From: Pseudomonadales bacterium
GTDB taxonomy: Bacteria > Pseudomonadota > Gammaproteobacteria > Pseudomonadales > UBA7239
Assembly: GCA_028280345.1 (NCBI GenBank)
Contig: JANQLY010000008.1
Location: 29,198-93,197, forward strand
DNA: 64,000 nt
Reading direction: 5' to 3'
In this document: one piece after another, positions 1 through 31,662 of the stretch
Numbering within the stretch: position 1 is the stretch's first letter
Layout of the letters: the number at the start of each line of letters is the position of its first letter
Program-made: the position numbers and the translations under genes
Notes under the pieces: generated by a model
Told to the model about the DNA's origin: nothing
The model's database searches: none
What the model saw: only the letters and a program-made list of their open reading frames with translations

Positions 1-3000
1 TGGCAACATCGACAAATACAACACCAAAGCCATTCAAGGCAAGTAGTAGCTTGTTATCGATCACTTCTATTGCGGTGATTTGACCTTCAAAGGTCGCCTG
101 CAAGCCACTCTCGTTATAGAGATTATGGCCCTGGCTATACCAGTAGCCACCTGCGTGCGGCATAAATGCATCAAATACAAGACTTGCAGCTGGCGTCAGG
201 GATAGCAGATCAACAATATTGACAGTTTTAACCAGGCTGCGTTGATTACCCAGACCATCACTGATAACAGCAGTGATTTCCAGCGCAGTCTCGCTACCAT
301 TCAATTGCAACTCAAGTACACGATCACCGGAAGCAATAACGATTCCGTTTTGATCCCTGACGGTAATCGTACCGATTAAATGACTCTCCAGATCAGATTG
401 CAGTGCAAGTTTGACAACACTACCTTTATAAAGCTGTGTCGGTACGCCTGACAGCTGCGGATCCGGCACGCTAAAGCGCGGCGACAGCTTAATACCTACC
501 GTGGTTTCAGCCACATCGTAGCTGTCATCGTAGTAGGCTCTGGCAACCAACACATAGTTCTGCAACGAGGACACATTCGGCAGTTGCAGTGCAAAGCTAC
601 CGGAATCAGTGCTGTGGCGTATCAGGGCCTGACGGTTACCGTTAAAGTCAGTGAGTTCAATTTCTGCGTGTTTAAAGCTTGCCGAACCATCCAGCTGACT
701 GACACTGAAGCTCGCCGTCAACGTATCACCTTCGACAAATATCTGGTTATGAGCAATACCCTGTATAAAGACATTCGCCAGACCATTTTCGTTGGCAAGC
801 GTTGTCACATCGGCGGATTGCAAGGTCTGCGCCGCCTGACTAACTGCGACAGTTGTTTCATCATTAATCGCAGCGGTATTTTCCAGCCAACCGTAACTGA
901 TAAACGGCAGTGCAGTCGTACGTGGCGTTACAACGGTATCGAGCGTCAGGCTGACATCATCAAGATATTGCAAGCCATCGAGTGTCGCCGACAACGGCAG
1001 GTGCGCCCGCTCACTGATCGTTGCAGCCTCTGCCGGGTTCAGCACAACACTACCACTCTGTTGCACGGCAGAGTCAATGATCAGCGACTGCTGCTCCACA
1101 CTGCCACCGTGGTTGGCAATATGCACTTCAAGACTGCTCACTCCGGACAGCGCGGTGGCAGGTACGAACCACAGTTGCGATTGTGTAATCGAAGCAGACA
1201 CACCGGCAAACTGGCCGCTGTTCCACAGCGGGTAAGCCGGCAGCAAGGCTCCATCAATACTATCGTCTTCTATATAGAGGGCTTCGCTACCGAGGCCACT
1301 ACTATCAACCGTTGCCGCAAGCAGGATACCCATCGGCAGGCGCGTCACATTCAGTGTGCTGATTGTTGCCGCATCACCGCTTTGTAGAGCACGACTATAG
1401 AGTGTGCCACTATTCGCATCAGCGTAGTACAAGGCATCCGCACCTACCGCCAACTCATCAGCCGCAATACTCAGGTTCGCAACACGCTCACCCGCGAGTA
1501 CCGCCTGCCAATGCGCACCGGTTTGTGCACCTGCAACACTTTCCATACCCGCCAGTTGCAGCCAGAGAATTTCACCGTCAACCACTGTCTGTACGATCTC
1601 ACCTTCGGCATCGTAGCTATACAGCTCAGCATCCACTGTGCCATCTGCAGCCAGACGGTAATGTGTCAGTTGCGAACCGGCAATGGTATACAGTTCATCA
1701 CCACTGAGTACAACCTGTTCAACATCCATCAGCTCAATCGTTGAGATCAACTGTAGTTCAGGGGCCGCCTGCTCACGCAGTTCGTAGTGATAGATTTCAC
1801 GCTGCGTAACAGCATAGACACGTTGCTGTGCCACAGTCACGCTGACAATACTCTCGGGCACACTGACTGCAAGCGCATCGACAAAACTGTCACCACTGCG
1901 AATCAGTGCTGTAATGGTATCGCCGTACTGAAGATAAACCCTGTCGCCATTGGCGCCGACAACCCTGCCCAACACACGCTGCTCGACGGCACTGGCAAAA
2001 TCACCGCCACTGAGTGGATAGAACACCAGCCAACGCTCACCATTGCGCACGACCTCAGCAGCAAGACCAGTTCCTGTGAAGTACAGCTCACTCACAGCAG
2101 CATCGGCAACCGCAGCGATCAGCCCACCCGGACCAACCAGTTCATAGCGGCTTTCGAGGTAGTTTTGTGCATAGACCACCCCGTAACCCGGCACATCGAC
2201 GAGCCCATCTATCTGCCACTCGGCATCAGGCACCTGGGTCAAAGCTACTGCATCCCCATCAAAGTACGGTATGCGTGTCACGGTGTAAGGTGTCACCACC
2301 TCATGGGCAGAGCGATCGTGCAGCGTGACATCAACACTGACATCACCACTGTTACTATCGAGTACGACCTTCTGCAAGTGATCGGAAATTTCAAGCGTTT
2401 CGGTATTAACACCATCACTGACAGCGACCGATGAAGTGGCAGCAAAGTCATCCATACCCATCGGCACTGGCGCGTGTAGCCACAATTCACTGCCCGAAAG
2501 CATGGTGTTAGCGGGCCACAGACCAAGACTGACACGCTCATCAATGCCGTCATCTTGTAACAGATTATAGAAACGCTGCGCCTGTACCGGCTGACCATCA
2601 GCATCTGCTTCGGCACGCACCAATAGCACAGTATCTTTGCTGATACCTGCAGGCAGTGTGACATCTACCAGCACGTATTCACTGTCATCCGGATTGCGCG
2701 TCGCAGTTTTAGCCACTGTTGCCGATGCCACAGCACCCACATCGAGATAAATATCTGCCGACGTCAAATTACGCATCAACACATTAAGGGTAATGGTCTC
2801 GCCAGCATGGAAGGTGTTGCCATCGGCAGGCAGCACAATATCCAGCTCCGGCGCTCCGGTTTCACCATCGTAAGGCACGATAGTTGCCGATGCAGTCTCA
2901 CTGACAAGATTGTTAAGGTCTATTGCACGGGCATCGAGCCTGATCGGATCCTCCGCATCTTCCGCTACCGTTAATTCATAGCGATTCGGATTCGTGAGTA

Positions 3001-6000
3001 CCTGACATGCCGTCTGGTCGCTGAAAATATCTCCTGCTGTACTGTCAATACACAGCTCTACTCTCGCAACACCGTAGCGATCAAACGACTTGAGCACCAC
3101 ATCAACCACTTCACCGCGAGGCACAAAGGTGCCATTAACCGGTGTCACCAGCTCAAGTTCAGGTGGCGTACTATCAGGCAGCAACAGATAAGTATTATTA
3201 AACGGCAAGGTAATTTCAGAACCCGGTATACCATAAGCCACACGCAGTTCAACCGGTATCGGTGTTGCAACTGGCGGTGCGCCTTGCGGCAGAATATCTG
3301 CGAGGCGCGGACTCAGGTAATCAAGTGACACGCGACCACTATCAATATCAAAGTTCGCCGGCAACCACGGTCCCTGTGCAGAAATCTGCATATAGAGGGA
3401 GCTGATAAGATCCAGATCACCCTCAAGATGGAAGCCCACTTCCGCACGAATCAGCTCTTCAATGCTCGGCGGATTAGTATAGGCGCTGTCACCCTGCGGC
3501 AAAGTAAAGAACCCTGGCTTGAGACCATCGGTGGACAGCTGAATATTTGGCAGTTCCAGCGGTACCACAAAGCTGCGCTCGGTCACATTCTGACCATCGC
3601 TCGCTCTGACCAGCAAGGTCAGTGTAGTAAAGCCTGGTTGAACCGCTACAGTAATATCACCATCAGCTTCCGCACCCTCCCAGTTATTCACAAAGGTAAA
3701 ACCACCGTCTCCGGAGTAACGATAGCTGAAGGAAATTTCGCCCGCACTGATATAGTTGTCCTGCGCCGCCAGATTCAACAAATACTCCTGACCGATCTTA
3801 AGCGGGGTTGTACCATCAACTACCTGACCAGTCGCTGCCTGTGTCAGCACAATAGAATCTGCCTGTGGCGGCAACAGGTCCTGGGCTTCAAACACTTCGG
3901 TGTAGGTACCATTATTGAAACCACCGGCATTTTTCACCGGATTGCCATTGGTGTCAGTAACACCAGTAACCGTGATCGTGTAAACCGCATTGTGTTCAAT
4001 CACCTGATCGCTGCGCAGGCGTACGAGCAAGCGATCACCCTGGATCACGATCGGATCAAAGCGATGGGTAATATCTTCGCTATTGTCGCTGCGTACCACA
4101 TAATCGCGGTATTCCTTGATAACCGTAAAGCCGCTCGCGAGTAACGTCTCACTGCCGCGTATGATCAGCGGATTCACATAATCGAAGTTCTGGATAACTT
4201 CCGCACTCGGTGCAGTATCGTCAATTGCACTGAGCAAGGTATCAATTTCAGCGAAGACCGTTTCCGCTGTTTCGGCACGCAATAGTACCACTTGATACTG
4301 CTCGCCAATCAGACTCTCCGGTGTTATAAATTGCAGACTATCACCAACCAACTGATAATCTACTGCATTGCTCACACCCGGTTGCACACCCTTGTTATAG
4401 GGAATCCAGTGCGCAGTCATATTTGCCGAGAAGCCGGAACCACTGACGGTAATAAGATCACCACCGGAGTCACTGACAATATTCATTCCGGTCGGGTTAT
4501 TCGATACAACCGTATTAATAACCATCGGCTCAACGGCTACGATCGCGGCCGGCAGAGTCGTTTCGGTGCCTTCATGTTTCACAGTAATTGATAGGACACC
4601 CGCATTCGACAGCACTGTGTTAAAGATAATCTCTGTGCCATTGTTATTCACTGTGAACAGACTGCTGTCGAGTTCAACGTCATCAATAAGAATCTGCTCA
4701 ACCAGTGACAACTGTTGGCCAAGCAGACGAATGGTCACGGGCTGATCTACAACAACGGTGGCTGGCATCAGATAGGATAGATTCAAGGCACTCAGACCAA
4801 ATAGCGGACTGGCCTGAATCGTACGCGGCAGATCAATGTTCAGTTGCGCACCATCAATCTGCGACACCGGATTTGCTGACAACGCCAGTTCGTACAATGT
4901 GGAAACTGCAAAACCACCACCCTGCGGCTCAAACACCAGACGCTGACCTTCAAGCGTTGTGGTACCACTCACTGCCGTGCCACTAAACTGCTCATTGAGA
5001 TCAAGGTCAACACTGAGCCAGGACTCAGCAGCACCCGCCAGATCGGCAATCACAATATCACCACTGTTGCCGAGTGCCGCCGGAGAAATCGTCGAAACAT
5101 TCGCAACAGGCACTTCGGCATTGTAGTAGTTAGCATCGTAGTGCCATTCAAGCAGACCAGCGGAGAACTGCAGCGATGCAACTGCCCCACCCAGAGTCTC
5201 TGGCAAATCAATAACCGCAAAAGCTCGCGCCGACAACTGCTTGTCGAGCTGCATATCCAGGTCGTACAAGTCGACAGACGCATTATTAAAGACAGCCAGC
5301 ACATCACCATCAAGCACAAGGCCATAGGGGCTACTACTACCGCCAAGCTCTGCAATCAGAGGCTCTGCAAATTCATCGGCAAACAGATTGCGGTCAAGCA
5401 CAGCCAATCCGGTCTCACTGTAGAGCACAATATGTTGCCCGTTAACCTGCATATCACGATTCGCAGCAATGTCATCACTGTAGGCACTGTAGATATAGCT
5501 ACGTATTACTGTATCTAGATCAGCAATCGAACGCTGCTCCAGACCATTTTCATAAAGTGTATAGGCAGAGCCGCCGAATACTTCAAGCGCAACAAACACA
5601 CCCATATTCTGAGCAAGGCTGTATTCAGCAAAATCAGAACCACGAACATTCGCCGCATATAACGTATCCTGATCCCGGACGATCACATCCTGGCCGGATA
5701 CCGCAATACTTTCGTATACGGTACCTTTTACATTGTTAAAGCGGTTTACAAACTCCGGCGCATAAATATTGCCGAGGTCATAAACCTCAACATCATTGTT
5801 AGCAGCAACCAATACGGCGAGTACCGCCCCATCGAGAGACAGCGCCGCAACCTGACCCGAGGCAGCAAACTGTGAAATAAACAGCGGCGTAGCACTATCG
5901 CGTAAACTGAAGACTTTTATAGTGTTGCCAGCGGCAGTGACCAGCAGATCACCACTGCGTTCCATATGCGTCAATCCGGCCAACTGCTGACGCGCATCAA

Positions 6001-21000: not shown

Positions 21001-24000
21001 CAGTATCCTCAACTGTCGCGGTAAGTTTCAGCGGCTCGCTTTCACGCATCACCCCTTCCGGTATTTGCAGAACATACTCATAGCGCACCGCATAGGGGTT
21101 ATGAATATGGCCGTACTCGGCGGCGATATCCGGACCGTAGTTCACTTCGAGTGAATCAGTCATCGACTCAAAAGCCTGTTCGATCAGATCGATTTCATCC
21201 GGTCGAATCTCATCCGGTTCCAGTTTGACGCGACTGACTTCCTGCAGAGTGATGCCGTTTGCACGGATTGTTATAGAAGGTGCACCTTTTTCCACCGACA
21301 GGAAGCGATCATCCGTCGCTACAACACCCACCTTGATTTTGAAGGTACCCGATGCAATAGACTGGTTATCCGCCGGGGTTACGATGCGCACTTCAGGCGC
21401 CACATTATCAACCGGGTGTACCAGGAAGCGGCGATCACTGTATTGACCCACACTATCAGTGATTCGAATCAAAAACTCCACTGGCTCGGAGTAATTGAAG
21501 TTAATCTCTGATTGAATATCAGCGACTTTAAGCGGCAAATCCGGACAGGTACGACTCAGGTCCCTGTAATAAATCTGCTCACCGAGCGTACCGTCGCGGT
21601 TCATGCGATAGATTGCGACATTATCGAGCCCGGCATCATCGGTAACCTGATAATCAAGCCGGAAGGTTTCGTCAACACGCACCCAGAACTCCGCATAGTT
21701 CAGGCGCTCAGGCTCTGTGATATTTTTCAGGTAGGCCGAACCCACCTTATAGGAATGGAAGCCGCGCAAGTCAATCAACGGCTTCTCATTACTGTCGATT
21801 GGCATAACAACCGATTGCTGCGTCACATTACCTGCGTAATCCGACACCAACGCCGAGATTTCCAATGACGAGCCAGCGTAATCAACCGGGATCTGATAAT
21901 GCGCAGTAAACTCACCACCGGTGAGATTACCAAACTGATGGATCAGATCGATATTGTTCTGATAAAACTGTATATCGCGAATCAGTTTACTTTCATCATT
22001 CGCATCAACCTTGATCTCAAGTACTTCACCGGGAACACGCACGCTACCATTTTCCGGCTGCACCAGCGTAAGCTCTGGCAGCACACTGTCTTCAACCAGG
22101 TTGTGAACATGAACCGGCTCTAGCGCCAGGTCGCCGCGTACTTCCGATAAGCGGTCAATCGCGTGAGCAAGAATCGTAAAGGTCTGCGCCGCGTGAGGCT
22201 CCATCGTCTGTACCGCAACAGAACCATTGAACTCAATATGCTCATAAGTCGCCGAGTGGAAATCGCCGATCTGGATAAACGCATCGCTACCTACCGGAGA
22301 CTGGGCATCGGCAAGCTCAACTATTACCAATGCCTGCTTGTCTGCCGAATAGTTAATATGAATATTGCGCAGGAAGCCCGGCGTTGCACCACTACTTGAA
22401 AGCACCTCGGGGCGAATACTCAGACCGGTTATATTGCCGCGATCCACAAACGGATCAAGATCCAGAGAGTTGCCACCATCGACAACCACCACTTCCGGCA
22501 TCGCGAGACAAACATTGTCTGAATGCACGGCGACATGGAAGCGATACTCGGTACCGTTATCGTCGAGGATATCAAGCTGATTAGATGTATAGAGATTAAA
22601 AGTATCGGCAACCTCGACCTTGCCATCGGCAAACTCAAGCCGTTGTGTACCGTTATAAACAATTTGACCTTCCCAGCCAGCCGCTTCCGGATAGTTCAAG
22701 CGCACTAATGGCAAGGTGTGATTCAACCACAGCTTCAGACTACCTGTCGGATCACGGGTACCACCCGCTCCGACACCGGTGAGATTGGTAAACATCGGCA
22801 CAAACTGCACATGGCGCTCGCCTTTCTCTTTGAAATCATCAGTTACGATGTAATCCGCATTAAACAAACCACCCTTCGATAGCTCATCTTCGGGATCAGG
22901 ATTTGAAAACTCAATCACCGGTGGCAAGTCCGGATCAACGGTGATCAACTTGCTTTCAGTTGTCGTGTTACCCGAAGAATCGATTGCGACAACCACAACA
23001 TTAAACTGTGAACCTGGTGCAAAACCGGTGATGTCGTAATCAATATCACCAATCTCGGGATCAACGCCACTGGGAATATTATAGGTTGAGCGATTTTCCA
23101 GACCACCTTCGGTAAAGATCAGCTCGCGACCACGCAATTCACTCTCAACACTGAGACTGACAGAGGTAATCAGTACTTCGTCACTGATATTGATATCCCA
23201 GTCGAGAATCTGCTGCTCAATCTCGTTCGCCTCAGGGCTAACAATAGTCACTTCCGGCCCTTCGGTATCGGGTTTGATTCTGACGGGCACACCCGGCGAG
23301 TCTGTACTGTTGATACCGTTATCACTAACGCGCACGACAAATTGCAACACCTGGTTTTCGTAGGAGATCATGTGCGCCGGAATTTCCAGCGTCGCTTTAA
23401 AATCGGTATAGAGTTTGCGCGCCACAAGCGAGGAACCAAACGAACTCTGATTCGCAATTTCAATCACTTCTTCACGATTAACACGACTATCAACACGCAC
23501 ATTAAGCGGCAACTCCGTGCCCTGCTCGTCAATCAACATGTATTGAATATCACTGACGACAAAATCATCACTCGCTGTACCTTCCACCTCAAAACTCTTC
23601 GTCGGTAGAATCGAGAACGGCTCAAGCGGCTTTTGCAGAATCACCGTTGGCGGAACAATGTCGTCAATTACATTGAGATTGATCGTCTCTTCTGTCGTCT
23701 GCGGTGTCGGCGCGTTATCGACTGCACGCACACCGATCACCAGCTCAGTCCCATCGGGCCGATGAGGAATACGCAACTCCGCAGTCGCATAGGATCCGGC
23801 GACATAGTCGCGCATCTCGAAAGACCTTGTAACAATATCCGGACCACCACTGAGCAGACGCACAAAGAACTCGATCGAGTTCACCTTGTTGTCATCGAGC
23901 ACCAGTGCTGCCACGGTGACTTTCTCACCTTCAACCAGCCTGGAACCCGCCGCCGGATTGCGAATACTGATGGTTGGCGGTGCATCGGTGCGCACAGAGT

Positions 24001-27000
24001 AATCCCAGCTAGACACATCGGTGTTACCGAAGATATCAACAGCGGTATAGGTCAAACTCAGCGAAGGTTGTGCCGGGATCTCATAGTTGAATTTGGTCTC
24101 AAAACTTTCCGTGTTTTCACCGGAAAAGTCTTTTGCATACAACACGTCTGTGCCGTTTTTAACTTCCAGGCTTGCCAGTCGCGCTTCATCAAGAGCACGC
24201 AGTGTAAAACTGACACGATGCGACGCATACAGCTCCGCACCATAAACCGGATCAGAAATTGCGGTAATCGGCGCTTCCAGATCCTGAACAACCTGTAGAT
24301 CCTCAATTGCGCCGGCACTGATACCTGTGCTGTAGACAGCCGACTGCACACCGAGACTGTCCGTCGCGGTAATTTCAAGATGCAGCGTGTGATTATCGTT
24401 ATCAAGACCAAGATCGGCAGGCACAAAAGAGAAACGATGCTGAAGATTAGCCAGCGCCGCAAGACCGGTCGAGTTGTTTTCTACTATCACCAGACTCGGT
24501 GTCGATTCACCATTGGCAAACACTTCAAGTTTCAAACCGTGTACGGCAATATCATCTTTTGCCAGCACATCAAGCGCCACTTCATCATAGAGGTCGTAGG
24601 CTGCCTGGTTCGGCACCACGCGCACCACTTCTGGCGGAATATCTGCAAACACACCGACAACCACTTCCGCTTTCGATGAGTTACCCACTTCATCGTAGGC
24701 CGTAACGGTGATCGGGTAACGATCAAACTGCACCGCTTCGAGATGCTTGAAAGCGGGTGCCGCCAGCAGTTTTAATGATGAAAATGCCTTGAGCACACCC
24801 GGAATTTTCTGCGGCGCAAAATCATCACCGGTCACGATGTCGCTCTCATCACCGGTAAGCACAAAACCCTGTCCATCGATCTTCTTCACACCGGTTAATT
24901 CAAGATTAACCACACCGACGTTGTCATAGCCCACTGCTTTGATAACAAAATCGTTACCTTCAACTATCGAGGCAATATCATCTCCAGCATCCTTGCGATC
25001 CACAACCGGAGAAGAAATATTCACCACCGGCGGATCTTCATCCTTACCAAGGGTGGCGTTAACCACATTACTCTGTGACACCTGACCCGCACTGTCCGTA
25101 ACCAGCGCATAAAAACTGATCGGCTGCTCATTGGCAATCAGTGGCGGCGTGTCATAGATAAAACTGAACGGCACCGCTGGGTCAGAGCCGACCAGCTCAC
25201 CGTTAACAAAGAAATCAACTCGATCAATATCAATATCATCACTCGCATTGGCGCGCAGCTCTACCGGCAAGCCTGAAACAATGTGCTGCCCCTCTACCGG
25301 GTGACTGAATGCAATGGTCGGAAACTGATCCGCCTTGACCGGAATCACAATCGCCTCGGACTGACTCACCTTGTCGTGAAAATCGGTTGCAATCGCAATA
25401 ATTTCCAGGCTCTGTCCGACCGCATCTTCCGGCACCTCGTATTCAAACTGCTCGGTAAAACTGCCATAGGAAAAGTTCGGATTCGCACCACTCGGACGCT
25501 GGCGATAAGAAGCGGAATCTACAAGTTCATCGTTGATAAACAATCTGACATCGGTACCCGCAGCAAGCACATCATCCGTGGTTTGCACACTGATTGGCAG
25601 GGTTTGCCCTGCAGTGGCAATGCCCCCTGGTACCGGACTCAGTACTTTCACCGTAGGCTCGGTGTTTTCAACGACACGAATAAATTTGCTGCCCACTTCA
25701 AACGACTGTTTTCGTATGTACATAACAGCAGAAACCGCGATAGAGGTTTCGCGGGTAGAGATTTCAGGGGCTTTAGTATTGTACTTCCAGAGTTCGTAAC
25801 GTTTTGGTGGATCCTGGGGATATTCGAGATTGGGCCGCTCTTCATAGGTCGCGTAGGATGCTGTGCCTATTTTTATGCCATCGGCAAAGAACTCTACATA
25901 TTCGACACCGCTGGTAAAAAGCCCTCCTTCCGGGTCATTACCAACCGGCAAGGCCACCTGTAACGGAAACGGTGTACCTTCAATGATGCGACTACCATCT
26001 GTCGGGAATTCAAATTCCGACGGCGGCTTGATCACACGGGAGGCACTGACAACCGGAACCGAAAACACAGAAGTTTCTGTAGTCTGCCCGGCACTGTCAC
26101 GAGCCGCTGCCTTGAGTTCCAGAATCTGACCTTCCATCGCATCGGCAATCGGCAGTGTTAATTGATACGGTGGTTTCAGTCGGCGGCTCACCAGACTGTC
26201 ATCAAGCCAGAAAGTCACTTCGCTAATGCTGACATCATCACTTGCCGTTGCTTTCACGACATAGTCACTATCAACAACAGCACGTGCCGGCGCCTTGAGT
26301 TCAACTTCAGGATAGGCATCGGTAGCAATCACCGGAATGGTGACATCAACCTCGGGGTATAACGCTAGTGAAAGACCGAGTTGCAGTGGCGAGGTGGCGG
26401 GAATTTCTGCCGTCGATTTCAGGTTACGCTCTTCATCAACAAACAGAAAATCTTCAGCACCCTGGGGAATAGACACGCTGATCACCAGAGAGCTGTTAAT
26501 CGGCGCTTCACTGGTATCGTCAAACACCCCGTAGACCTGCGGCATGGCAAAATCGCTGTTAAGGCGATCAAGATGCAGCGGTGTAGCAACATCAACGCCC
26601 TCTACACGCAGCGCATCCAATCGCTTGGAAAAATCCACCGTCACCGGCACCTCGACATTCGGCAGACCCGCATAGGAAACCGTGATAATCACCGGTGTAT
26701 TCGGCAGGGTTTCAGCAATCGGATAAACCGAACCATTCGGGCCGACAAAGACTCTGGAAGTATCGGAAGAACTGTAGCTCACTCCCTGGGCAGAACCCGG
26801 CAGCGGTGTCGGGCCACGGAACTGGTAGTCTACGGTCGGAATCAACTGGCTGATTTCAAGTACGTTACTAAACAGTAAATTGGTCGGCGCCACAGTGAGG
26901 CCCAACGCCTCTTCGTTGAGGTCGGTACCGGTCAGCTTCAGTTCCGAGATACCGCGTTTTCTACCCCAGCTATCAACCGCAGTTACCTCAACAAGCACCA

Positions 27001-27694
27001 GCGCATTCGAGGCAATTTCTTCCGCACTCAATGGCGCATCCACCGGCAGACGCAACACAAACTCGGTTTGCGCACTGCGATCCGGGTAGCGGCGCGTAAC
27101 ACCACGGGTTTGCGCAAATGCTCTTTCCTTCGCCGTGTGAACCACACCACCCGCAGAGCGCAAGTCGGACGCGCGGAAACCGGTAATCTCATAACTCAGG
27201 TAGGCCATATCACCGGCATCGGAAGACACGGTAACCGCCAGGAACTGCTCACCGTCTTCTTCGCCGATGGCCACTTCAGAAAACTGCAAGGAAGGCCCGG
27301 TACCATCATCAGTAAAGTCCTCACTGATCGTGTCGGTACTGCCATCCAGATAAGTAATATCAGCGCGCGGTGAGAAACGTTCGGCGCCTTCAAGAGAGAA
27401 ATAATAATCACAACTCAACGGGCTGTCGGTTGGCGTCAGATTACTGCCCGGATCAAGTGCATGCAGTTCAGTAGCACTGCCTACTTCAAGGCTGACAATA
27501 TTGCTGCAATCCGATACGCGCAGCATATAACGACTGCTGTTATCAGAATTCGACAGAAACGACGCTGCCCGTATATCAAGATCTATAGCCTGAGCTGTGA
27601 AGGTCGCAAGAAATAGAAATAAGCCACACGTAGCTGTTACTGTCGTGCGCTTACCCATAGAGAAAACACGAATACCCCTATCCAAGATCCTCAT
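1..27694 (-). CDS. Giant secreted/surface repeat protein, partial (>=9,231 codons; C-terminus beyond the left window edge): Sec signal peptide, array of ~100-aa bacterial Ig-like modules, IPT/TIG-like modules, multiple LVIVD-type beta-propeller repeat blocks
   Basis: The ORF is absent from the track because it has no stop in the window. ATG at 27694 (in-frame alternative ATG at 27658) gives MRILDRGIRVFSMGKRTTVTATCGLFLFLATFTAQA/IDLD, with a basic n-region, a hydrophobic core and an AQA cleavage motif. Hand translations all fall in the same frame (first codon positions = 1 mod 3). 25330-24950: PTIAFSHPVEGQHIVSGLPVELRANASDDIDIDRVDFFVNGELVG...ALVTDSAGQVS (Ig-like module). ~24090-23880: TAVDIFGNTDVSSWDYSVRTDAPPTISIRNPAAGSRLVEGEKVTVAALVLDDNKV. 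~17830-17690: DNLAFVANGHGGIQVLDISLITAP. 13336-13080: GNYAYLAAGAGGLVIVDISDVLAPQII. 12259-12090: VTSIEPKWGAIGGGTVVTVRGSGFEPG (IPT/TIG signature). ~10940-10850: RGLVVLDIRDLQNP. 61-2 is also open in frame. All 23 minus-strand track ORFs between 1903 and 27411 lie in one other frame. Spot checks of four 60-nt lines found no in-frame stop. Confidence 0.9.
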   Translation of the reverse strand, partial: MRILDRGIRVFSMGKRTTVTATCGLFLFLATFTAQAIDLDIRAASFLSNSDNSSRYMLRVSDCSNIVSLEVGSATELHALDPGSNLTPTDSPLSCDYYFSLEGAERFSPRADITYLDGSTDTISEDFTDDGTGPSLQFSEVAIGEEDGEQFLAVTVSSDAGDMAYLSYEITGFRASDLRSAGGVVHTAKERAFAQTRGVTRRYPDRSAQTEFVLRLPVDAPLSAEEIASNALVLVEVTAVDSWGRKRGISELKLTGTDLNEEALGLTVAPTNLLFSNVLEISQLIPTVDYQFRGPTPLPGSAQGVSYSSSDTSRVFVGPNGSVYPIAETLPNTPVIITVSYAGLPNVEVPVTVDFSKRLDALRVEGVDVATPLHLDRLNSDFAMPQVYGVFDDTSEAPINSSLVISVSIPQGAEDFLFVDEERNLKSTAEIPATSPLQLGLSLALYPEVDVTIPVIATDAYPEVELKAPARAVVDSDYVVKATASDDVSISEVTFWLDDSLVSRRLKPPYQLTLPIADAMEGQILELKAAARDSAGQTTETSVFSVPVVSASRVIKPPSEFEFPTDGSRIIEGTPFPLQVALPVGNDPEGGLFTSGVEYVEFFADGIKIGTASYATYEERPNLEYPQDPPKRYELWKYNTKAPEISTRETSIAVSAVMYIRKQSFEVGSKFIRVVENTEPTVKVLSPVPGGIATAGQTLPISVQTTDDVLAAGTDVRLFINDELVDSASYRQRPSGANPNFSYGSFTEQFEYEVPEDAVGQSLEIIAIATDFHDKVSQSEAIVIPVKADQFPTIAFSHPVEGQHIVSGLPVELRANASDDIDIDRVDFFVNGELVGSDPAVPFSFIYDTPPLIANEQPISFYALVTDSAGQVSQSNVVNATLGKDEDPPVVNISSPVVDRKDAGDDIASIVEGNDFVIKAVGYDNVGVVNLELTGVKKIDGQGFVLTGDESDIVTGDDFAPQKIPGVLKAFSSLKLLAAPAFKHLEAVQFDRYPITVTAYDEVGNSSKAEVVVGVFADIPPEVVRVVPNQAAYDLYDEVALDVLAKDDIAVHGLKLEVFANGESTPSLVIVENNSTGLAALANLQHRFSFVPADLGLDNDNHTLHLEITATDSLGVQSAVYSTGISAGAIEDLQVVQDLEAPITAISDPVYGAELYASHRVSFTLRALDEARLASLEVKNGTDVLYAKDFSGENTESFETKFNYEIPAQPSLSLTYTAVDIFGNTDVSSWDYSVRTDAPPTISIRNPAAGSRLVEGEKVTVAALVLDDNKVNSIEFFVRLLSGGPDIVTRSFEMRDYVAGSYATAELRIPHRPDGTELVIGVRAVDNAPTPQTTEETINLNVIDDIVPPTVILQKPLEPFSILPTKSFEVEGTASDDFVVSDIQYMLIDEQGTELPLNVRVDSRVNREEVIEIANQSSFGSSLVARKLYTDFKATLEIPAHMISYENQVLQFVVRVSDNGINSTDSPGVPVRIKPDTEGPEVTIVSPEANEIEQQILDWDINISDEVLITSVSLSVESELRGRELIFTEGGLENRSTYNIPSGVDPEIGDIDYDITGFAPGSQFNVVVVAIDSSGNTTTESKLITVDPDLPPVIEFSNPDPEDELSKGGLFNADYIVTDDFKEKGERHVQFVPMFTNLTGVGAGGTRDPTGSLKLWLNHTLPLVRLNYPEAAGWEGQIVYNGTQRLEFADGKVEVADTFNLYTSNQLDILDDNGTEYRFHVAVHSDNVCLAMPEVVVVDGGNSLDLDPFVDRGNITGLSIRPEVLSSSGATPGFLRNIHINYSADKQALVIVELADAQSPVGSDAFIQIGDFHSATYEHIEFNGSVAVQTMEPHAAQTFTILAHAIDRLSEVRGDLALEPVHVHNLVEDSVLPELTLVQPENGSVRVPGEVLEIKVDANDESKLIRDIQFYQNNIDLIHQFGNLTGGEFTAHYQIPVDYAGSSLEISALVSDYAGNVTQQSVVMPIDSNEKPLIDLRGFHSYKVGSAYLKNITEPERLNYAEFWVRVDETFRLDYQVTDDAGLDNVAIYRMNRDGTLGEQIYYRDLSRTCPDLPLKVADIQSEINFNYSEPVEFLIRITDSVGQYSDRRFLVHPVDNVAPEVRIVTPADNQSIASGTFKIKVGVVATDDRFLSVEKGAPSITIRANGITLQEVSRVKLEPDEIRPDEIDLIEQAFESMTDSLEVNYGPDIAAEYGHIHNPYAVRYEYVLQIPEGVMRESEPLKLTATVEDTEQAVGHDEVTLNIEPDTIIPVAFISKPFGYSPAESSDFTLGFGGYDNVKVQRLEVYRAYGVLKPDNSYEQTAFEQLRVISGIPNLDYQPVSTEQIDTPIYEQIIHVDRLTEIAAQFSGVSLDNDTHFDVILKVVAHDLAYSDEVSQTYRVHVDERPVIDVIEPLDSTPVVEGTQVFVNVQAFDDVGIQYVEMTPTHRGGEALQPLKLYQPPYSYSFTVPAFDKDNPENNIVDLQLYALDTYGHKYGELDNHTASESLSIRIVEDVAPVVAIGTPQDGSVFKEGQYMLVQVNAVDDVGVDRVVLDVAGFRTGDETFTDLVYPYEFLIQLPYGQAGADLQLTASVTEQRANGVARTVTTPDVVTVHVEKDELAPEILLFSPVSNGTVVENRDFDYSMDVLDDVEVGVVTISLFADADDSGSYEEEELVYESLLLNPPFFGTVMLKEIAEYVDAEDPALIPDQLSLQFKVTARDGAGNESSTSVPLKMIHNQPPEVTGINVLDARGFNMGNISQIAEGRAIVVNVLANDPEVGVDSATLYYSITNPDGEETAQVLVGEDSSAPFQFHMQVPTDIVGSTLSFMAQARDVDGYESPLSAGLIDLEIVADQPPTARITKPDNNNSVIIDGQNIEVFVDVFDDLGPDGVDHVVFYLNDQPVADVYDNYGKQVGSFAQEHVYRAEISAPEGVDGFYLQAVAYDVLGQAGASQVVLVGRIKDTVEPKVSVINPFDREILTTAESLRSIVSIVDTGEEIEAVTQYWSRGYEDSAGNWISADTFDLSLFRDDVRVDGDATPVSDPDNFYFIYWADFTEGNILRRGVFDNERVRVVTEVVTPNHTVTTTNFYEIGLNTSERRFLNPQENSAENRAKSVFYTSVDQYKSAERTGAMVATWASHDPFWTEQDLGLFKEDDIPGSILPRTGLFLLDAVDETQGNEQGDFFVYSNLLNGASEIFVGTITELHADPNMIAASKSGTEDNTGCVGDDQPPACFFIGELEEKVRENWLGGDNSAEGSGNLFYDNESGELLLFTTQNGDNQFGLPYLLAGRIDMPFIDTYGLDIKDNLAFVANGHGGIQVLDISLITAPYHIGFIKPNGFSRDVKIKDGFAYIAASHEGLVIADINDPSLPIVAKIDTLGVANRLEISGNRVFVTDMAGDGGTSQLNIFDITDPYHPQMERVIDLRPARPDLVSDGVYDVMVSGNLAYVTVLYSDQEDKPAQSIVEVIDLQKALDPTLDATIPAMIDRHTSVANLSARGLTLARGAVQVAGGKQGINRLEMHELTVLAHQPGFDEVDVPTNITAIELELSAVLDPATVLDDYITVFGGDPELGAPDITGDFTVRFGTRNSEPHYRTIEIVPDADVLQPSQRYVVRVTAGLMPLTGRPLGSDYQFKFFTSAAGDALQPDITGICSLVSELVGNNYCTATGGIEGGTEIVIRGLNFGSDPELEIGGQPVVIDRIEAPTLEDPYERIYATTYPNYAGPAAVTVTNDDGLTDTVIGGFTYVDILQISFIDPAVVRTAQVGVNDRVNIVGYGFHTGIELKAYKSGQPGTAVTYTVDDELLELYSAEKMYWYVPDFSDGQGQPYRGFIDIEIRDEMGRFYLLQNAVFYGRLSINRTLVTELPFKEKDIQDRLNTIENRSFDSYVPDATKLPPGEIAALEVDTELRWIYVLGRGLIDTKVDPKRVYNQDTFRDFTAPGWISLVQYDRDNLQDAAPRHALGYLNLPQDVMPIDMELDDNHVYVTAQGYNYPHINTPFDGQAVLLVFDRETAQSENSETLPEGNRRDYIFALPMPLQGTPEKLLIKDDLLIINANSSIAIISIADRIRPSIIKQIETAVVSGAEKNLEVDDIEIIGDYLHVVLKDDKRLVYDLTKPSLPQLGQSGYSTLSAAFPGQNRFATGNALEVVDARFPQYLKTLGRYTANGFEIPGESSAIAAQSSVAAILTSKQQRGPEECQPQGFMTNLDGFDSTDTLGYKIPYLALYDAGRTEEILLLDALKVDQACSWMDFTPAMPGQDAMVYSDDGLVIFGINRGAGGDGLFSSLNILDTLMIDLADSVPAAGESNVHRDVSIALNFTHSLPLTEAELASYVTLYLDNGTDGEQAVAANLVIDSADDSILHINPQSLLEANRVYRIELKGDLASRRTIGLFNHEIRFSTGDATGDPVEIVSIAPSITEVTGGVTYITLRNSSGAPQFFVSEQFANVLSEETLPDGSVRYEVQTPPNNPGPATLRVRTGNGSEARRIGALHYVEPMLVKSVTPNEGGLGGGTVVNIIGQGFRAGVGELVVLMDGVELDSEKVKVLDTGTIEIVTPGGRIGWVDITVRLSTGQEQTIENAFQYLQPVQSNIESEGRIYDMVLDPTGTYLVTANGDQGIFIYDISASSYTTNTEQLLNPDELLELIDENGDEVDDRILTQVKLPSGYAALGVDTFFEKGLDRVFVTGAKTNGAKASDAKLFTVSFDSLDITNSVIINNLQLLGGAAKGIEVENNRALLAMGDDGLGIVDVYLHTKQYLADHIAMPNNKHILDLDTVDSLPGETQKIVVVGGEFHYGNNRLTETEQVDGGGFYIVENSTARGLAVIASLDIPASRVRVVGNYAYLAAGAGGLVIVDISDVLAPQIISRVTEAGFVYDIDISGNIVYIARGERGIATVDVTDPYSPILSEGMQAYSDNIIDAVLASNYSAIGSGMAGQNAVIQVVPDIVLKVHTVDPQNRIIDLNVDGSAVVRLRFNKAIDLHAPNLNRFHIFDNNAAALPADVSIINNDAILTLQDQVLAQLQVGATLTARADAGVASVKPGAVGTNDEIILYTLLQNQDFDFVYRGAEYEIVSVEGVVPRRVAQGEPTLVTVALLGAPTDTSRVRLYIGETQVSIDDLLTSDEDERVAIARFTSPAFNEAGQFDVTVEVEKDGVWQRDTLAGGLVVDGELQVTSIEPKWGAIGGGTVVTVRGSGFEPGNTVIDGIKLKVGSLPATNVTVVATDLMRVTMPKGTPGLHSVYVEDRYGRTVSLHGEDGFGYGLKFRSSVNPENVTPSDLWIDEETGVLVTNAGYFPSNHWATGVLGVLFPETYRAVSFDIQNPDQPLLVGGNFSLPSGDEGYNWLQGKAIGWSIEANLDGISEEEQTLLDRSNAFEYAMGMGSIRLFPLEELEEGVVRKRLYVANEKGGVARLNLDEQNGLQYINEMLPGGYITDVNKQGNLLFAASTGLSFSENAQEPCATSIAEFSGSGVSMVNYIDPFDPIEMGGTSLVGDWLYRNDNWMFSGGASRSGKTFVNSPPCQFWPDYSIEGFTEKAETSTIYAQHLYDANLRTEYSFNGNVRDMLIYGDYIVAALGYQGIEFVHRDRPEERYQFAIDEKLQGGGGTAEKLDLFGSALFVSATRGLVVLDIRDLQNPVVISAGNTETTRDVEIYKDRVIGAGGRGVNVFDLPAAVVMRTSVAEGGELSNNVAQKMVLTFNEIMDVASVQLPGAVELVEIDAQDGTETPVSFTLVPQYHSGQTDTAQYFEIDFARVSGAELELRVNSANNARGVGLWMPFKQRFSIAEGGAWQPKVTAVEGATFHKGRQDRITIRGEYFRSGAQVYVDQYPVSSVWVDEQTIEIPAGSLAMDGIPLEPGQHHLRVIDGELTGHWLGGLVVGEEIALDQVNFIISPDAGDQRGGIGISIRSDYEVILPGTRVVLEQRRNTDNVIYTGYQDTDPVFGEYTIDLKDNVEGLGKFAFLLPGVVHQDLYRVYLRIPVGNSVEQVYVGDFSYTLSQGLSIDLPNYPPHEIGGAQFVDSTMYVGVKKGTRATYYNRFLMEYGVETFDVSIWERPVRLGALPMNAPVNGVAVLDSMMLAANDSEGLALIDIRDKTEPLLIRHWELPGHRAMDIDVHQGNHIFALAAANDLGSGFIRFIRLNGGELSTPSGYETITLEQDELGGGLYGQPLDLQWQGDSLYVLLAHNGELMLAIIDSFGTNPSYTLHPIERGSVGNIRDVSMLVQYGQVTISSGSELAIIEGDAQSGFETVYWQPLVNGSNAQTSELLFNGGGVMVGNRDGVIINRNNSLLVSAVSPVEGTTMTPGDTLRLQFNNLMNTSEANIGAITLTQADSSPLPDTQYEMEAINTLSGGYVDIRFIGDFTYTGDITITVPTTVLDLGGHSLAHEFVGHYTLQSGVVPRIESVSRLLNNEVYDAFFHANGSEQVQIIGQNFVNATLTSVIIGDTLIAPENVVSVSDTEIIVVLPEMPQLAGANALLPVKVVRNDSGLSYILYGALAILPQIEIDDINPQTGPPQGGTRVNIYGRGFSHDITVKFNGATAGDLRVYDSNHIQVRAPSGSFGPATITIENRLFPGEVETSPVDYFYSGRETGSVNLSDDKSSPVSAITLNGQLLYAVTGGSFDVIDSQGVFIRRLYSDVARLVLADISDPVRPIILEKEFINELEPYHFDVNGGLDPEGVVALQYEENNLYLAGGNRLYHFDITLLADPLLLNTLNVNGEIKDFAVENNVIYVATTNGVYIYRLTNELGLRELAQLTVSKLGGKPTEVSIYDGSLWVVVPSSNELLQIDLMAGDYSVTRRVLIEDLANQLFIPENMLLHENLLLISTGSSATVNAYAIDSDTSASFVARLQLEYLVANGDLFAGEMILRGQTLYVASGQGDLQAFDISPWLASDFQTPVNLKNYFAVTGNVNSISFSPEAIYAGSSFVYVNEEPSENPIDGAYGQLGGALNTILNTDLLVVEQQPLAGGWHSVAEPLEIQFNRILDYTQVDALGDSLFTVTLDGAPITGLVSQQVNNAGSLLIFRPLADFAADKLYKAEISQALRDLHGITLEDDYRFEFFTTDEVQPQITVVDPVMGSWRGGETLTIQGEGFGSNTVVIMGGVEISGSDITVESSSVLHITVPELASSPSGNVLVGVAVSNGPLAAVETAAYTYIADPVISSIGSYDRSSGYFNVNDKRFVFNAGEHIGLSGVGLGSSTRVRINGRVVEDLRIEGHQLLSVPVPVDAVGTLLVEVSNQDFTTDTVSDQQLLIEFDARQQLAGLTHMERSGDLLVTAAGNTIKVFSLRDSATPLFISQFAASGQVAALSLDGAVLAVLVAANNDVEVYDLGNIYAPEFVNRFNNVKGTVYESIAVSGQDVIVRDQDTLYAANVRGSDFAEYSLAQNMGVFVALEVFGGSAYTLYENGLEQRSIADLDTVIRSYIYSAYSDDIAANRDMQVNGQHIVLYSETGLAVLDRNLFADEFAEPLIAELGGSSSPYGLVLDGDVLAVFNNASVDLYDLDMQLDKQLSARAFAVIDLPETLGGAVASLQFSAGLLEWHYDANYYNAEVPVANVSTISPAALGNSGDIVIADLAGAAESWLSVDLDLNEQFSGTAVSGTTTLEGQRLVFEPQGGGFAVSTLYELALSANPVSQIDGAQLNIDLPRTIQASPLFGLSALNLSYLMPATVVVDQPVTIRLLGQQLSLVEQILIDDVELDSSLFTVNNNGTEIIFNTVLSNAGVLSITVKHEGTETTLPAAIVAVEPMVINTVVSNNPTGMNIVSDSGGDLITVSGSGFSANMTAHWIPYNKGVQPGVSNAVDYQLVGDSLQFITPESLIGEQYQVVLLRAETAETVFAEIDTLLSAIDDTAPSAEVIQNFDYVNPLIIRGSETLLASGFTVIKEYRDYVVRSDNSEDITHRFDPIVIQGDRLLVRLRSDQVIEHNAVYTITVTGVTDTNGNPVKNAGGFNNGTYTEVFEAQDLLPPQADSIVLTQAATGQVVDGTTPLKIGQEYLLNLAAQDNYISAGEISFSYRYSGDGGFTFVNNWEGAEADGDITVAVQPGFTTLTLLVRASDGQNVTERSFVVPLELPNIQLSTDGLKPGFFTLPQGDSAYTNPPSIEELIRAEVGFHLEGDLDLISSLYMQISAQGPWLPANFDIDSGRVSLDYLSPRLADILPQGAPPVATPIPVELRVAYGIPGSEITLPFNNTYLLLPDSTPPELELVTPVNGTFVPRGEVVDVVLKSFDRYGVARVELCIDSTAGDIFSDQTACQVLTNPNRYELTVAEDAEDPIRLDARAIDLNNLVSETASATIVPYDGETGAPELDIVLPADGNTFHAGETITLNVLMRNLTSADIYLDVGAVASATVAKTATRNPDDSEYVLVDVTLPAGISKDTVLLVRAEADADGQPVQAQRFYNLLQDDGIDERVSLGLWPANTMLSGSELWLHAPVPMGMDDFAATSSVAVSDGVNTETLEISDHLQKVVLDSNSGDVSVDVTLHDRSAHEVVTPYTVTRIPYFDGDAVALTQVPDAEWQIDGLVDVPGYGVVYAQNYLESRYELVGPGGLIAAVADAAVSELYFTGTGLAAEVVRNGERWLVFYPLSGGDFASAVEQRVLGRVVGANGDRVYLQYGDTITALIRSGDSFVDALAVSVPESIVSVTVAQQRVYAVTQREIYHYELREQAAPELQLISTIELMDVEQVVLSGDELYTIAGSQLTHYRLAADGTVDAELYSYDAEGEIVQTVVDGEILWLQLAGMESVAGAQTGAHWQAVLAGERVANLSIAADELAVGADALYYADANSGTLYSRALQSGDAATISTLNVTRLPMGILLAATVDSSGLGSEALYIEDDSIDGALLPAYPLWNSGQFAGVSASITQSQLWFVPATALSGVSSLEVHIANHGGSVEQQSLIIDSAVQQSGSVVLNPAEAATISERAHLPLSATLDGLQYLDDVSLTLDTVVTPRTTALPFISYGWLENTAAINDETTVAVSQAAQTLQSADVTTLANENGLANVFIQGIAHNQIFVEGDTLTASFSVSQLDGSASFKHAEIELTDFNGNRQALIRHSTDSGSFALQLPNVSSLQNYVLVARAYYDDSYDVAETTVGIKLSPRFSVPDPQLSGVPTQLYKGSVVKLALQSDLESHLIGTITVRDQNGIVIASGDRVLELQLNGSETALEITAVISDGLGNQRSLVKTVNIVDLLSLTPAASLVFDAFMPHAGGYWYSQGHNLYNESGLQATFEGQITAIEVIDNKLLLALNGFGVVFVDVA

Positions 27695-28014
27695 AGATAT
27701 TTTTATATCCTGCCTTTTTTGTCCCGTTGTACTTCTTAAAGTACTAAAAACTCCAGTTACCTATAAAAAACTTATACAAAACAATATCTTATGTTTATTT
27801 TTTAAAGTTCTTTATACCTTGTACATCCCACCACCTAATAGCTGGGCATATTAATGACAAGTGCCTTAAAACTCAACTGCCAGCACTGGTAGTTTTGCCA
27901 AACAGCACTTTAAGAAATACACATAACTTATTGAAAAATATGACTTTGTGTTTTTTTTAACCATAAAGATTTTGTGAAGAAAGTCACCCAATGCGTACAG
28001 TTACAAAACCGCGC

Positions 28015-28140
28015 CTAAAAGCCTTTAGCACCAAAAAAAGAGCCCTCAGCGTTTCCAAGAGAGCCCTTAGCGTTTTAAAGAGAGCCCTCAGCTTTTTAAA
28101 GAGGGCCCTCAGCATTTATGAAAGAACTCTCAGCGAATAA
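28015..28140. repeat. Phased 21-bp tandem direct repeat, 5 clear copies plus 1 degenerate copy, consensus about AAAGAGAGCCCTCAGCGTTTT. Each unit holds a near-palindrome GAGrGCCCTC (perfect GAGGGCCCTC at 28101-28110).
   Basis: The core GAGCCCTCAGC-like 11-mers start at 28040, 28061, 28082, 28103 and 28124, exactly 21 nt apart. A weaker in-phase copy starts at 28019. Both strands carry stop codons, so the array is non-coding. It lies 320-450 bp upstream of the giant ORF start. Confidence 0.85.
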
Positions 28141-28160
28141 GCGAGTAACAGATAGCCTCA

Positions 28161-28234
28161 GATACGCCTGAAGAGACTCTTACATTTTATAATTTGAGTG
28201 TTTTTTAACGCCCGGATTAACCGTCAGGCGTATC
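28161..28234. repeat. 11-bp perfect inverted repeat GATACGCCTGA / TCAGGCGTATC with a 52-nt spacer. The right arm overlaps the Rrf2 gene stop codon. It may form a 3' stem-loop.
   Basis: Read directly at 28161-28171 and 28224-28234, which are exact reverse complements. No clean U-tract follows on the minus strand, so terminator function is uncertain. Confidence 0.4.
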
Positions 28235-28700
28235 AGCTATCCGCTGCTGTCACCCCATCCGGCTTAAGCTCGCTGCTAAAGCTGCCAAGTGATGACAGTG
28301 CCGGCGAACGCGTTTCAGCCGCTATCCCATTGTGATTCTCCACCAGACTTTTGAGGTTTATCTGGCTCAAATACTCATGCACATCATCACTGAAATCAGC
28401 CCAAAGCTGTTCAACCAGCCCGGCGTCAGTCGCGAGTGTTTCCTGAGGGTAGACCGCGTCGACAATCTCGCTGACACTGATGTCCGCACTATCGCGGCCA
28501 AGAAAATACCCGCCACCCGGTCCGCGACTACTGCTCACAAGGCCGCAGGCTTTGAGATGGGAGAATATTTGTTCGAGATAAGACAGAGATACCCCGCGGC
28601 GGCGAGCTAACTCGGCGAGATTCAACGGTTTCTTGCTTCCCTGAAGGGCCAATTCAAATAAAGACATAATCGCCAATTGGCTTTTTGCGGTCAGTTTCAT
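28233..28700 (-). CDS. Rrf2-family (IscR/NsrR-like) transcriptional regulator
   Basis: 155-aa ORF. The N-terminal wHTH MKLTAKSQLAIMSLFELA...LNLAELARRRGVSLSYLEQIFSHLKACGLVSSSRGPGGGYFL is typical of Rrf2 proteins. Confidence 0.85.
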   Translation of the reverse strand: MKLTAKSQLAIMSLFELALQGSKKPLNLAELARRRGVSLSYLEQIFSHLKACGLVSSSRGPGGGYFLGRDSADISVSEIVDAVYPQETLATDAGLVEQLWADFSDDVHEYLSQINLKSLVENHNGIAAETRSPALSSLGSFSSELKPDGVTAADS

Positions 28701-28811
28701 AGTTCCATTACCTTAGCTAAACCGTAACCATTGTGTGGGATTTAGGCAGAAATTACAACCTTATAAACAGCCATGGGCCCGCTATCAAAAGCCCTGAGCG
28801 GCTTTTAAAAC

Positions 28812-30185: not shown

Positions 30186-30234
30186 AGCTTTATCTGTTTC
30201 CCGTTACCACCTGCAAACAAGTGGCTGAAAATAG

Positions 30235-31638: not shown

Positions 31639-31662
31639 AACGGATCAATATGAAATTGGCAA

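Follow-up and report, generated by a model that had tools for sequence, protein, structure and literature searches.

A giant gene of a coral-associated gammaproteobacterium encodes a candidate surface fibril of Ig-like domains and LVIVD propellers

Introduction

The well-studied giant proteins of Gammaproteobacteria are repeats-in-toxin (RTX) adhesins of type I secretion systems (T1SS), which are composed of near-identical repeats. MpIBP of Marinomonas primoryensis (approximately 1.5 MDa), LapA of Pseudomonas, and SiiE of Salmonella are giant, acidic surface fibers rich in immunoglobulin (Ig) domains, in which spacers project distal ligand-binding modules. T1SS RTX adhesins are made without a Sec signal peptide, contain an N-terminal retention module, near-identical tandem repeats, and, at their end, RTX repeats and a T1SS signal, and are encoded beside genes for ATP-binding cassette (ABC) transporters and membrane fusion proteins (MFP). 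Here, we describe a giant gene that occupies the first 27.7 kb of a 64,000-nucleotide stretch of DNA, hereafter the window (contig JANQLY010000008.1, positions 29,198 to 93,197 of the forward strand; GenBank assembly GCA_028280345.1), from a bacterium classified in the Pseudomonadales (UBA7239).

Two further classes of proteins are relevant for comparison. Cell-surface proteins with LVIVD repeats (PF08309) have been described, and the repeats were predicted to form a beta-propeller (Adindla et al. 2004, PMC2447325). Very large bacterial proteins of >10,000 amino acids (aa), which are rare, were surveyed by West-Roberts et al. in 2023 (bioRxiv 10.1101/2023.11.21.568195); the survey places its emphasis on Omnitrophota and further PVC phyla, Actinobacteriota, Myxococcota, Margulisbacteria, and Clostridia, and a search of its text for Gammaproteobacteria gave no result. 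The current study shows that the window holds two-thirds, counted from the 5' end, of one intact gene that is native to the chromosome of an undescribed coral-associated gammaproteobacterium, and, on balance, we consider its product to be a Sec-exported surface fibril or adhesin of propellers and Ig-like domains.

Results

Reality and extent of the open reading frame

Translation of the reverse complement revealed 9,231 codons with zero stops in one minus-strand frame between window positions 2 and 27694, starting with the ATG at 27694 (protein N terminus, MRILDRGIRVFSMGKRTT...). Upstream of this position, the same frame contains many stops, and the remaining five frames are interrupted by 122 to 840 stops over the 27.7-kb span. 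At the given base composition, 9,231 open codons would arise by chance with a probability of approximately 10^-194. A first-pass annotation, made from the window sequence alone, had proposed an uninterrupted open reading frame (ORF) of at least 27.7 kb, and no stop or frameshift was found in it; its omission from the underlying ORF list is solely due to the exclusion of ORFs that run off the source.

The adjacent Rrf2 protein gave access to contig SRR20820735_253567 (40,996 bp) of the Logan assembly, which was made independently from the coral metagenome that also underlies the window. This contig is identical to window positions 1 to 20000, with zero differences, zero gaps, and a flat depth of 21x, and continues for 10,937 bp past the window edge. 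The gene call for the giant gene on this contig spans the ATG to the last contig base (12,877 residues) with no stop reached, which corresponds to a gene of at least 38.6 kb; the stretch beyond window position 1 is known as a gene call and a length and not as read sequence. The frame that the first-pass annotation could follow only to the window edge hence stays open for at least 10.9 kb more, and the length of at least 9,231 aa given there holds as a minimum but is too low as a figure. The full-length protein has at least 12,877 aa and, judged from a collinear ortholog, probably approximately 13,600 aa (approximately 1.4 to 1.5 MDa); the end is expected near residue 13,600 because the ortholog (L082, see below) sums to 13,617 aa.

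Neither Tandem Repeats Finder nor a repeat search of window positions 1 to 28000 detected tandem or dispersed DNA repeats in the giant gene, and the most alike internal modules of the protein are just 20 to 36% identical. Repeat collapse, a risk pointed out by the first-pass annotation, is therefore not a concern, and it was rejected on the absence of DNA repeats together with the identity of the independent assembly over 20 kb at even depth. The giant gene has a GC content of 51%, and its relative synonymous codon usage correlates with that of the flanking housekeeping genes (0.88) and hardly with that of a nearby defense island (approximately 0.17). An origin as a horizontal-transfer island was rejected on the basis of this match in GC content and codon usage with the housekeeping neighbors, and the gene is native, not foreign. 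A pseudogene was likewise rejected, based on the absence of stops and a frame that is kept open in the independent assembly.

Sequences of the giant gene are present in three runs of one coral metagenome study, and the two low-coverage samples among them showed >99% identity to it. When the three coral samples were compared along 20 kb of the gene, the sole variants were an in-frame loss of 3 nt at position 10950 (one sample) and a G>A exchange at position 14346 (another). This pattern fits a clonal population under coding constraint.

Domain architecture

Pfam matches above the gathering thresholds were obtained for Big_7 (5e-64), LVIVD (6e-24), Big_5, and TIG (2e-45, in the second half of the window protein). 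In aa 1 to 5000, LVIVD scored 83.5 bits versus a cut-off of 20.2, with matches at aa 3320-3354 and 4811-4847. The Ig, LVIVD, and IPT/TIG assignments of the first-pass annotation are thus all backed by Pfam, and the Ig-like N-terminal third that it had placed at 27.0 to 18.7 kb corresponds to the Big_7 array of Table 1. No family-level NCBIfam model matches the giant protein. The stretches of 100 to 150 aa between the Big_7 domains of the array are probably divergent Ig modules, and the matches of the array in a PDB sequence search were only Ig domains of a chitodextrinase and of GH9 and an Ig B1 domain.

The module map was established with iterative hidden Markov models (HMMs), which were seeded within the protein and enriched with homologs. 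From aa ~2934 to 7812, it comprises seven supermodules of approximately 590 to 730 aa, each with an LVIVD propeller, Big_5, and TIG domains in this order and with minor variation in supermodules 4 and 7; propeller blades were found by the iterative HMMs in all seven. The alternation of LVIVD and TIG modules that had been noticed before is hence genuine, and beyond it lies a regular sevenfold supermodule that also holds Big_5. According to hhalign, the propeller of supermodule 7 is related to that of supermodule 3 (70% probability). The terminal part of the window protein (aa 8371-9231) has no Pfam match, and a profile-profile comparison related aa 8371-8800 to the supermodule-7 propeller (96.6% probability). 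A PDB sequence search with the second half of the window protein gave no matches.

An AlphaFold2 model of aa 4470-5241 (supermodule 3; alignment of nine homologs) reached a pLDDT of 83 and a pTM of 0.81. It consists of a TIG domain, a propeller of approximately seven blades (28 strands, aa 4564-4930), and three beta-sandwich domains. Foldseek searches of the PDB with this model retrieved WD40-type propellers at TMt values of 0.57 to 0.70, and the LVIVD repeats of the giant protein are accordingly modeled as a beta-propeller fold. Top-ranked by E-value were the ectodomains of plexin A1/A4 (2.6e-13 to 9e-11), with TM-scores of 0.16 to 0.20 and 8 to 10% identity.

The N terminus shows the hallmarks of the signal peptide that had been annotated, i.e., a positively charged stretch, a hydrophobic core, and an AQA motif (aa 34-36) followed by I at aa 37; the signal-peptide sequence is MRILDRGIRVFSMGKRTTVTATCGLFLFLATFTAQA, with IDL after the predicted cleavage site. 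A hydropathy scan of all 9,231 aa found no hydrophobic segment besides aa 16-33. The region that follows (aa 37-458) has no Pfam or NCBIfam match, as Big_7 begins further on; a Big_7-like match at aa 185-281 is nonsignificant, and a single-sequence AlphaFold model of the N-terminal 435 aa was unusable (pLDDT 36.6). On its N-terminal traits, a substrate of type V secretion was rejected, since Pfam at E<=0.1 on aa 1-924 gave Big_7 only and NCBIfam nothing, and hence no TPS domain, LysM, or inverse-autotransporter barrel.

The part of the protein encoded in the window has a mass of 1.0 MDa, a pI of 4.3, 14% D+E versus 5.9% K+R, and 15 Cys in 9,231 aa, and no enzymatic or membrane domains were found in it. 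The protein is very acidic, all-beta, and built solely of extracellular-type beta modules. With an export signal, a long Ig-like array, and no cytoplasmic or enzymatic domains, it shows the sequence traits of generic giant surface adhesins that are Ig-array fibers.

A collinear family in fragments

A query of 1,200 aa (aa 4401-5600) retrieved nine relatives, one with 50% identity (P0001) and eight with 36 to 45% (P0002 to P0009). All of them carry TIG and LVIVD, most also Big_5, and nearly all are labeled "partial" and located on short contigs. They originate from gammaproteobacterial metagenome-assembled genomes (MAGs; Chromatiales, Reinekea, Kangiellaceae) and one Polyangiales MAG, and their database annotation is just "IPT/TIG domain-containing protein."

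On a 592-kb ENA contig (locus L082), P0001 is encoded by the second ORF in a row of four on one strand (4392, 1157, 1339, and 6729 aa), which sum to 13,617 aa. A tblastn comparison revealed a single collinear path over window residues 1020 to 8849 with 38 to 50% identity, and the ORF breaks represent three simple frame changes (at 9944-10001, 13471-13563, and 17582-17668). Collinearity extends over aa 602 to 8700 in a second locus (L083), which is heavily frameshifted and split into many ORFs. Orthologous modules (38 to 50%) are more alike than paralogous ones (20 to 36%), which indicates that the whole array is older than the split between these lineages and that its modules were retained one by one.

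When the last 1,200 aa of the window protein served as the query of a full HMMER search, 142 representative clusters were found; 64 reached E<=1e-30, and many are pieces of 3,000 to 7,500 aa. A word-indexed protein search with the last 915 aa found no match, which probably reflects a limit of the index on long proteins, as it returned no protein longer than approximately 2,100 aa in any search. No relative was found when GTDB genomes and JGI metagenomes were scanned with the last 400 aa, and a JGI scan with a profile of the relatives' C termini gave no match.

The variable C-terminal ends of three relatives (P0107, P0108, P0166) were compared with those of four others (P0123, P0099, P0088, P0102). 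The former have a conserved terminal sequence and thrombospondin type 3 (TSP3) repeats in common. A Gly-rich, beta-helix-like region of approximately 1,700 aa that ends ...LGAANDEFIELLN.SGA.VTW forms the C terminus of both P0107 and P0108, and P0166 has its last ~700 aa; neither Pfam nor the PDB yielded a match for this region, and the profile of the relatives' C termini returned only noise from the PDB. After the common TSP3 repeats, other members end in an RCC1 propeller plus LamG with a fibrinogen-like tail, a BNR/sortilin-type propeller, or Big_7 plus CarboxypepD_reg. In sequence terms, this variation looks like tip swapping. None of the C-terminal regions of relatives that were examined contains domains of the RTX, autotransporter, OmpA, T9SS (type IX secretion system), or PEP-CTERM type, and a C-terminal autotransporter beta-barrel was not found in them either; TPS and sorting signals were likewise not seen in the relatives. 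The sole 3' context recovered from a relative was a 4-kb low-coverage contig (L084) that is uninformative, and the P0003 locus is a fragment.

Judged by its sequence relationships, the giant gene belongs to a conserved, uncharacterized, collinear family that is present in databases as unrecognized fragments. The architecture, called unusual in the first-pass annotation, is indeed rarer than ordinary, but its domain types are known and common to this family.

Genomic surroundings and host

Upstream of the giant gene lie housekeeping genes that are ordinary for Gammaproteobacteria, namely those for Rrf2, a pyridine-nucleotide disulfide oxidoreductase, CysG, SerS, RarA, LolA, FtsK, TrxB, Aat, and Ate, and later PgsA, UvrC, a UvrY-like regulator, AlkB, and MurB. 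No secretion genes (ABC, MFP, TolC) are present in the 36 kb upstream. The intergenic region of 538 bp in front of the giant gene has no sigma-70 consensus match. A 21-nt unit (AAAGAGAGCCCTCAGCGTTTT on the plus strand; 85% matches) occurs there four times in tandem (positions 28035-28117), either as a possible array for the binding of a regulator or as possible remains of a terminator.

The SerS, TrxB, UvrC, CysG, and Rrf2 proteins (window positions 28233-40725 and 56168-61941) are singletons at 90% identity among approximately 15 billion proteins; these five housekeeping proteins are present only on one NCBI contig and in Logan. SerS reaches at most 67% identity to its counterparts in the GTDB species representatives, and none of 80 SerS-anchored GTDB loci contains a homolog of the giant gene. 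The singletons and the low SerS identity are indicative of a deep, undescribed gammaproteobacterial lineage that is known only from coral metagenomes.

A defense island (window positions 41124-54934, minus strand) with a GC content of 42.5% and foreign codon usage adjoins tRNA genes at 55675-55758 and 55838-55908. Its two Mod genes are paired with a DrmD-like helicase, which is an unusual combination.

Table 1. Coordinates of the giant gene, its protein modules, and neighboring features in the window
Feature	Window position	Strand	Remarks
5' 27.7 kb of giant ORF, codons 1-9231	2..27694	-	No stops; continues beyond window position 1
Sec-type signal peptide, aa 1-36 (aa 13-36 if start is second ATG, 27658)	27587..27694	-	Hydropathy peak aa 16-33; predicted cleavage after AQA
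N-terminal region, aa 37-458	26321..27586	-	No significant family match; reads as beta-rich, Ig-like
Ig-like array, aa 459-2933	18896..26320	-	15 significant Big_7-type domains; Pfam Big_7 5e-64, iterative HMMs
Ig-like linker and supermodule 1, aa 2934-3833	16196..18895	-	LVIVD blades 3283-3503, Big_5 3504-3619, TIG 3648-3727, TIG 3733-3833
Supermodule 2, aa 3834-4563	14006..16195	-	LVIVD match 4025-4101, Big_5 4278-4366, TIG 4391-4473, TIG 4479-4563
Supermodule 3, aa 4564-5234	11993..14005	-	Approximately seven-blade propeller 4564-4930, Big_5 4932-5016, TIG 5053-5143, TIG 5151-5234
Supermodule 4, aa 5235-5852	10139..11992	-	LVIVD matches 5372-5650, Big_5-like 5655-5715, single TIG 5768-5852
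Supermodule 5, aa 5853-6558	8021..10138	-	LVIVD match 6017-6074, Big_5 6267-6365, TIG 6394-6475, TIG 6482-6558
Supermodule 6, aa 6559-7225	6020..8020	-	Propeller 6569-6907, Big_5 6938-7022, TIG 7047-7132, TIG 7156-7225
Supermodule 7, aa 7226-7812	4259..6019	-	LVIVD matches 7244-7351, TIG 7639-7719, TIG-like 7738-7808
Ig-like stretch, aa 7813-8370	2585..4258	-	Weak Big_5 7879-7921; Big_7 8175-8266, 8280-8370
Divergent propeller-like tail, aa 8371-9231	2..2584	-	LVIVD-like motif GFGVVFVDVA at window edge
Upstream intergenic region, 538 bp, AT-rich	27695..28232	-	Between Rrf2 gene and giant gene; presumed promoter and 5' untranslated region
DrmD-like SNF2 helicase	52082-54934	-	Defense island; PADLOC 7.9e-215
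AIPR/AbiU-like protein	50277-52082	-	Defense island
Two paralogous type III Mod methyltransferases	48639-50261, 47003-48631	-	Defense island
Type III Res	44292-47006	-	Defense island
Three ORFs without significant match	43603-44256, 42252-43577, 41124-41915	-	Defense island

Discussion

The interpretation as a giant extracellular adhesin or matrix protein, which the first-pass annotation had put forward, gains support from the acidity and the all-beta composition of the protein and from a collinear family with lectin-type ends; it is what we infer from sequence. The product that we favor is a surface fibril, most likely an adhesin of micron scale. The Sec pathway would export the chain, which would then be either presented at the cell surface or shed from it in the form of a long, semirigid structure. 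The Ig and TIG domains would act as spacers, and the many different propellers together with a distal C-terminal region, which is of the lectin type in relatives, may engage in the multivalent binding of ligands from the host or the matrix, e.g., coral mucus, glycans, or other cells. With more than 100 domains of approximately 4 to 5 nm each, the fibril might attain a length of several hundred nanometers. The acidity of the protein and the TSP3 repeats of its relatives suggest that calcium could stiffen it.

Several observations weigh against the surface fibril. The signal peptide was assigned by eye and hydropathy only, and no RNA runs with sequences of the giant gene were found. No outer-membrane secretion or anchoring signal was recognized in the N terminus or in the C termini of relatives, which makes the surface route of a 1.4-MDa Sec substrate in a Gram-negative cell difficult to account for. 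For the anchoring and the distal modules, we rely on extrapolation from relatives of just 30 to 50% identity, and we likewise infer, from the modules, that the giant protein adheres at all. The frameshifts of the orthologs in L082 and L083 could stem from homopolymer errors of long reads or from actual gene decay.

The best-surviving alternative, which we regard as unlikely but worth consideration, is a protein that is not anchored to the cell but is released, or proteolytically cut into pieces, and forms a matrix, sheath, or aggregate scaffold around the cells in coral tissue. The lack of any anchoring signal throughout the family would agree with release, TSP3-type calcium-binding repeats and LamG, as seen in relatives, are typical components of matrices, and some coral-associated bacteria form dense aggregates. 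However, protease domains or recognizable processing sites were not seen, and the strictly conserved module order fits a single fibril equally well as a polyprotein; nothing separates a released from an anchored form.

It is improbable that the giant protein is an adhesin of the LapA/MpIBP/SiiE type, secreted C terminus first by a T1SS and held in TolC by an N-terminal module, in which case what resembles a signal peptide would have no role. In size class, acidity, Ig-like arrays, and gammaproteobacterial host, the giant protein does resemble the 1.5-MDa MpIBP and LapA, and RTX repeats might lie in its C terminus, which is off-window. Yet those defining features of RTX adhesins that could be tested are missing: the N terminus is canonical and Sec-like, HemolysinCabind/RTX (PF00353) has no Pfam match in the window part, and RTX has none in the complete C-terminal regions of seven relatives (P0107, P0166, P0123, P0099, P0088, P0102, and P0129). 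Near-identical tandem repeats are absent as well, and so are ABC, MFP, and TolC genes in the 36 kb upstream.

Two functional alternatives are very unlikely. One is mimicry of the host, in which the supermodules of propeller and IPT domains imitate plexin/semaphorin/Met ectodomains as ligand or receptor and engage cnidarian surface signaling. The plexin ectodomains at the top of the Foldseek ranking and an organism known only from coral metagenomes would be in line with this idea, but the low TM-scores and identities of these matches, a propeller of the LVIVD type, and the absence of Pfam matches to Sema (PF01403) and PSI (PF01437) speak against it, as does the occurrence of the family in free-living marine lineages, e.g., in MAGs of Reinekea, Kangiellaceae, and Chromatiales. 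The other, to which we attach just as little weight, is an interbacterial weapon or capture device, i.e., a fiber or grappling structure with a polymorphic tip and the variable C terminus as the effector. The sharp differences between the C-terminal regions of members after the common TSP3 repeats are reminiscent of polymorphic toxin systems; however, the variable ends examined are lectin, propeller, and beta-helix and not nucleases, deaminases, or pore-formers, and a context of small, immunity-like genes was not seen, with the contig L084 as the sole and uninformative 3' context.

An artifact or pseudogene, i.e., a chimeric assembly or a decaying gene that is open by chance, is effectively refuted, since the broken orthologs in two long-read-style assemblies are outweighed by the negligible chance of a 27.7-kb open frame, an identical independent assembly with a frame open to 38.6 kb, a sole indel among samples that is in-frame, and a module-by-module conservation at 38 to 50% identity that implies long-term purifying selection.

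Beyond the gene itself, a far-reaching interpretation can be formulated, which we offer as a speculative one that is unlikely to hold. The giant gene and its collinear relatives would then represent an undescribed family of nonrepetitive surface fibers of approximately 13,000 to 14,000 aa with Sec signals in marine and host-associated Gammaproteobacteria, with plexin-like supermodules of propeller, Ig, and IPT domains and interchangeable lectin-type tips; the route to the surface would be none of T1SS, T5SS (type V secretion system), T9SS, or a sortase-like one, and the fiber would serve in attachment to coral tissue in the present host. If the giant protein is a surface fibril, it would be a candidate host-attachment factor of an uncultured coral-associated bacterium and would pose a concrete secretion problem, i.e., how a Sec substrate of 1.4 MDa crosses the outer membrane.

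The comparison with known systems places the giant protein between several classes. Its true homologs are the collinear IPT/TIG fragments (P0001 to P0009, P0085 to P0226, and the loci L082 and L083), among which L082 matches the giant protein in its Big_7 array, in the LVIVD/Big_5/TIG supermodules after it, and, by summed length, in size; the homologs differ in being mostly partial, are 30 to 50% identical and uncharacterized, and vary in their C-terminal ends. In practice, the many MAG entries named "IPT/TIG domain-containing protein, partial" belong to a single family of giant genes, on which assemblies and gene callers break down.

The giant protein would work in the manner of MpIBP, LapA, and SiiE, with which it has acidity, Ig domains, and mass class in common, whereas the Sec-like N terminus, the lack of RTX in the window part and in relatives, the absence of DNA repeats, and the seven beta-propellers set it apart. 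It would thus exemplify an alternative build of a 1.4-MDa surface fiber, with approximately a hundred diverged modules in an order that is fixed across lineages, a Sec signal, and seven distinct propellers as candidate binding sites. By its repeats, which score above threshold and are modeled as a propeller, it is a member of the LVIVD class (PF08309), but typical LVIVD proteins in the match list have 700 to 2,000 aa and one propeller, in contrast to at least seven propellers here, each followed by Big_5 and TIG. The order of propeller and IPT/TIG is shared with plexin, semaphorin, and Met ectodomains, which gave the best Foldseek E-values in the PDB; Sema and PSI are absent, and the resemblance counts as an architectural analogy rather than as demonstrated homology. 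Among the surveyed giants, those of Omnitrophota carry enzymatic domains and lie near loci resembling type II secretion systems, neither of which was seen for the giant gene. Nevertheless, with a size of >10,000 aa, a predicted extracellular location, and its richness in beta-propeller and beta-sandwich modules, the giant protein falls into the class of West-Roberts et al.

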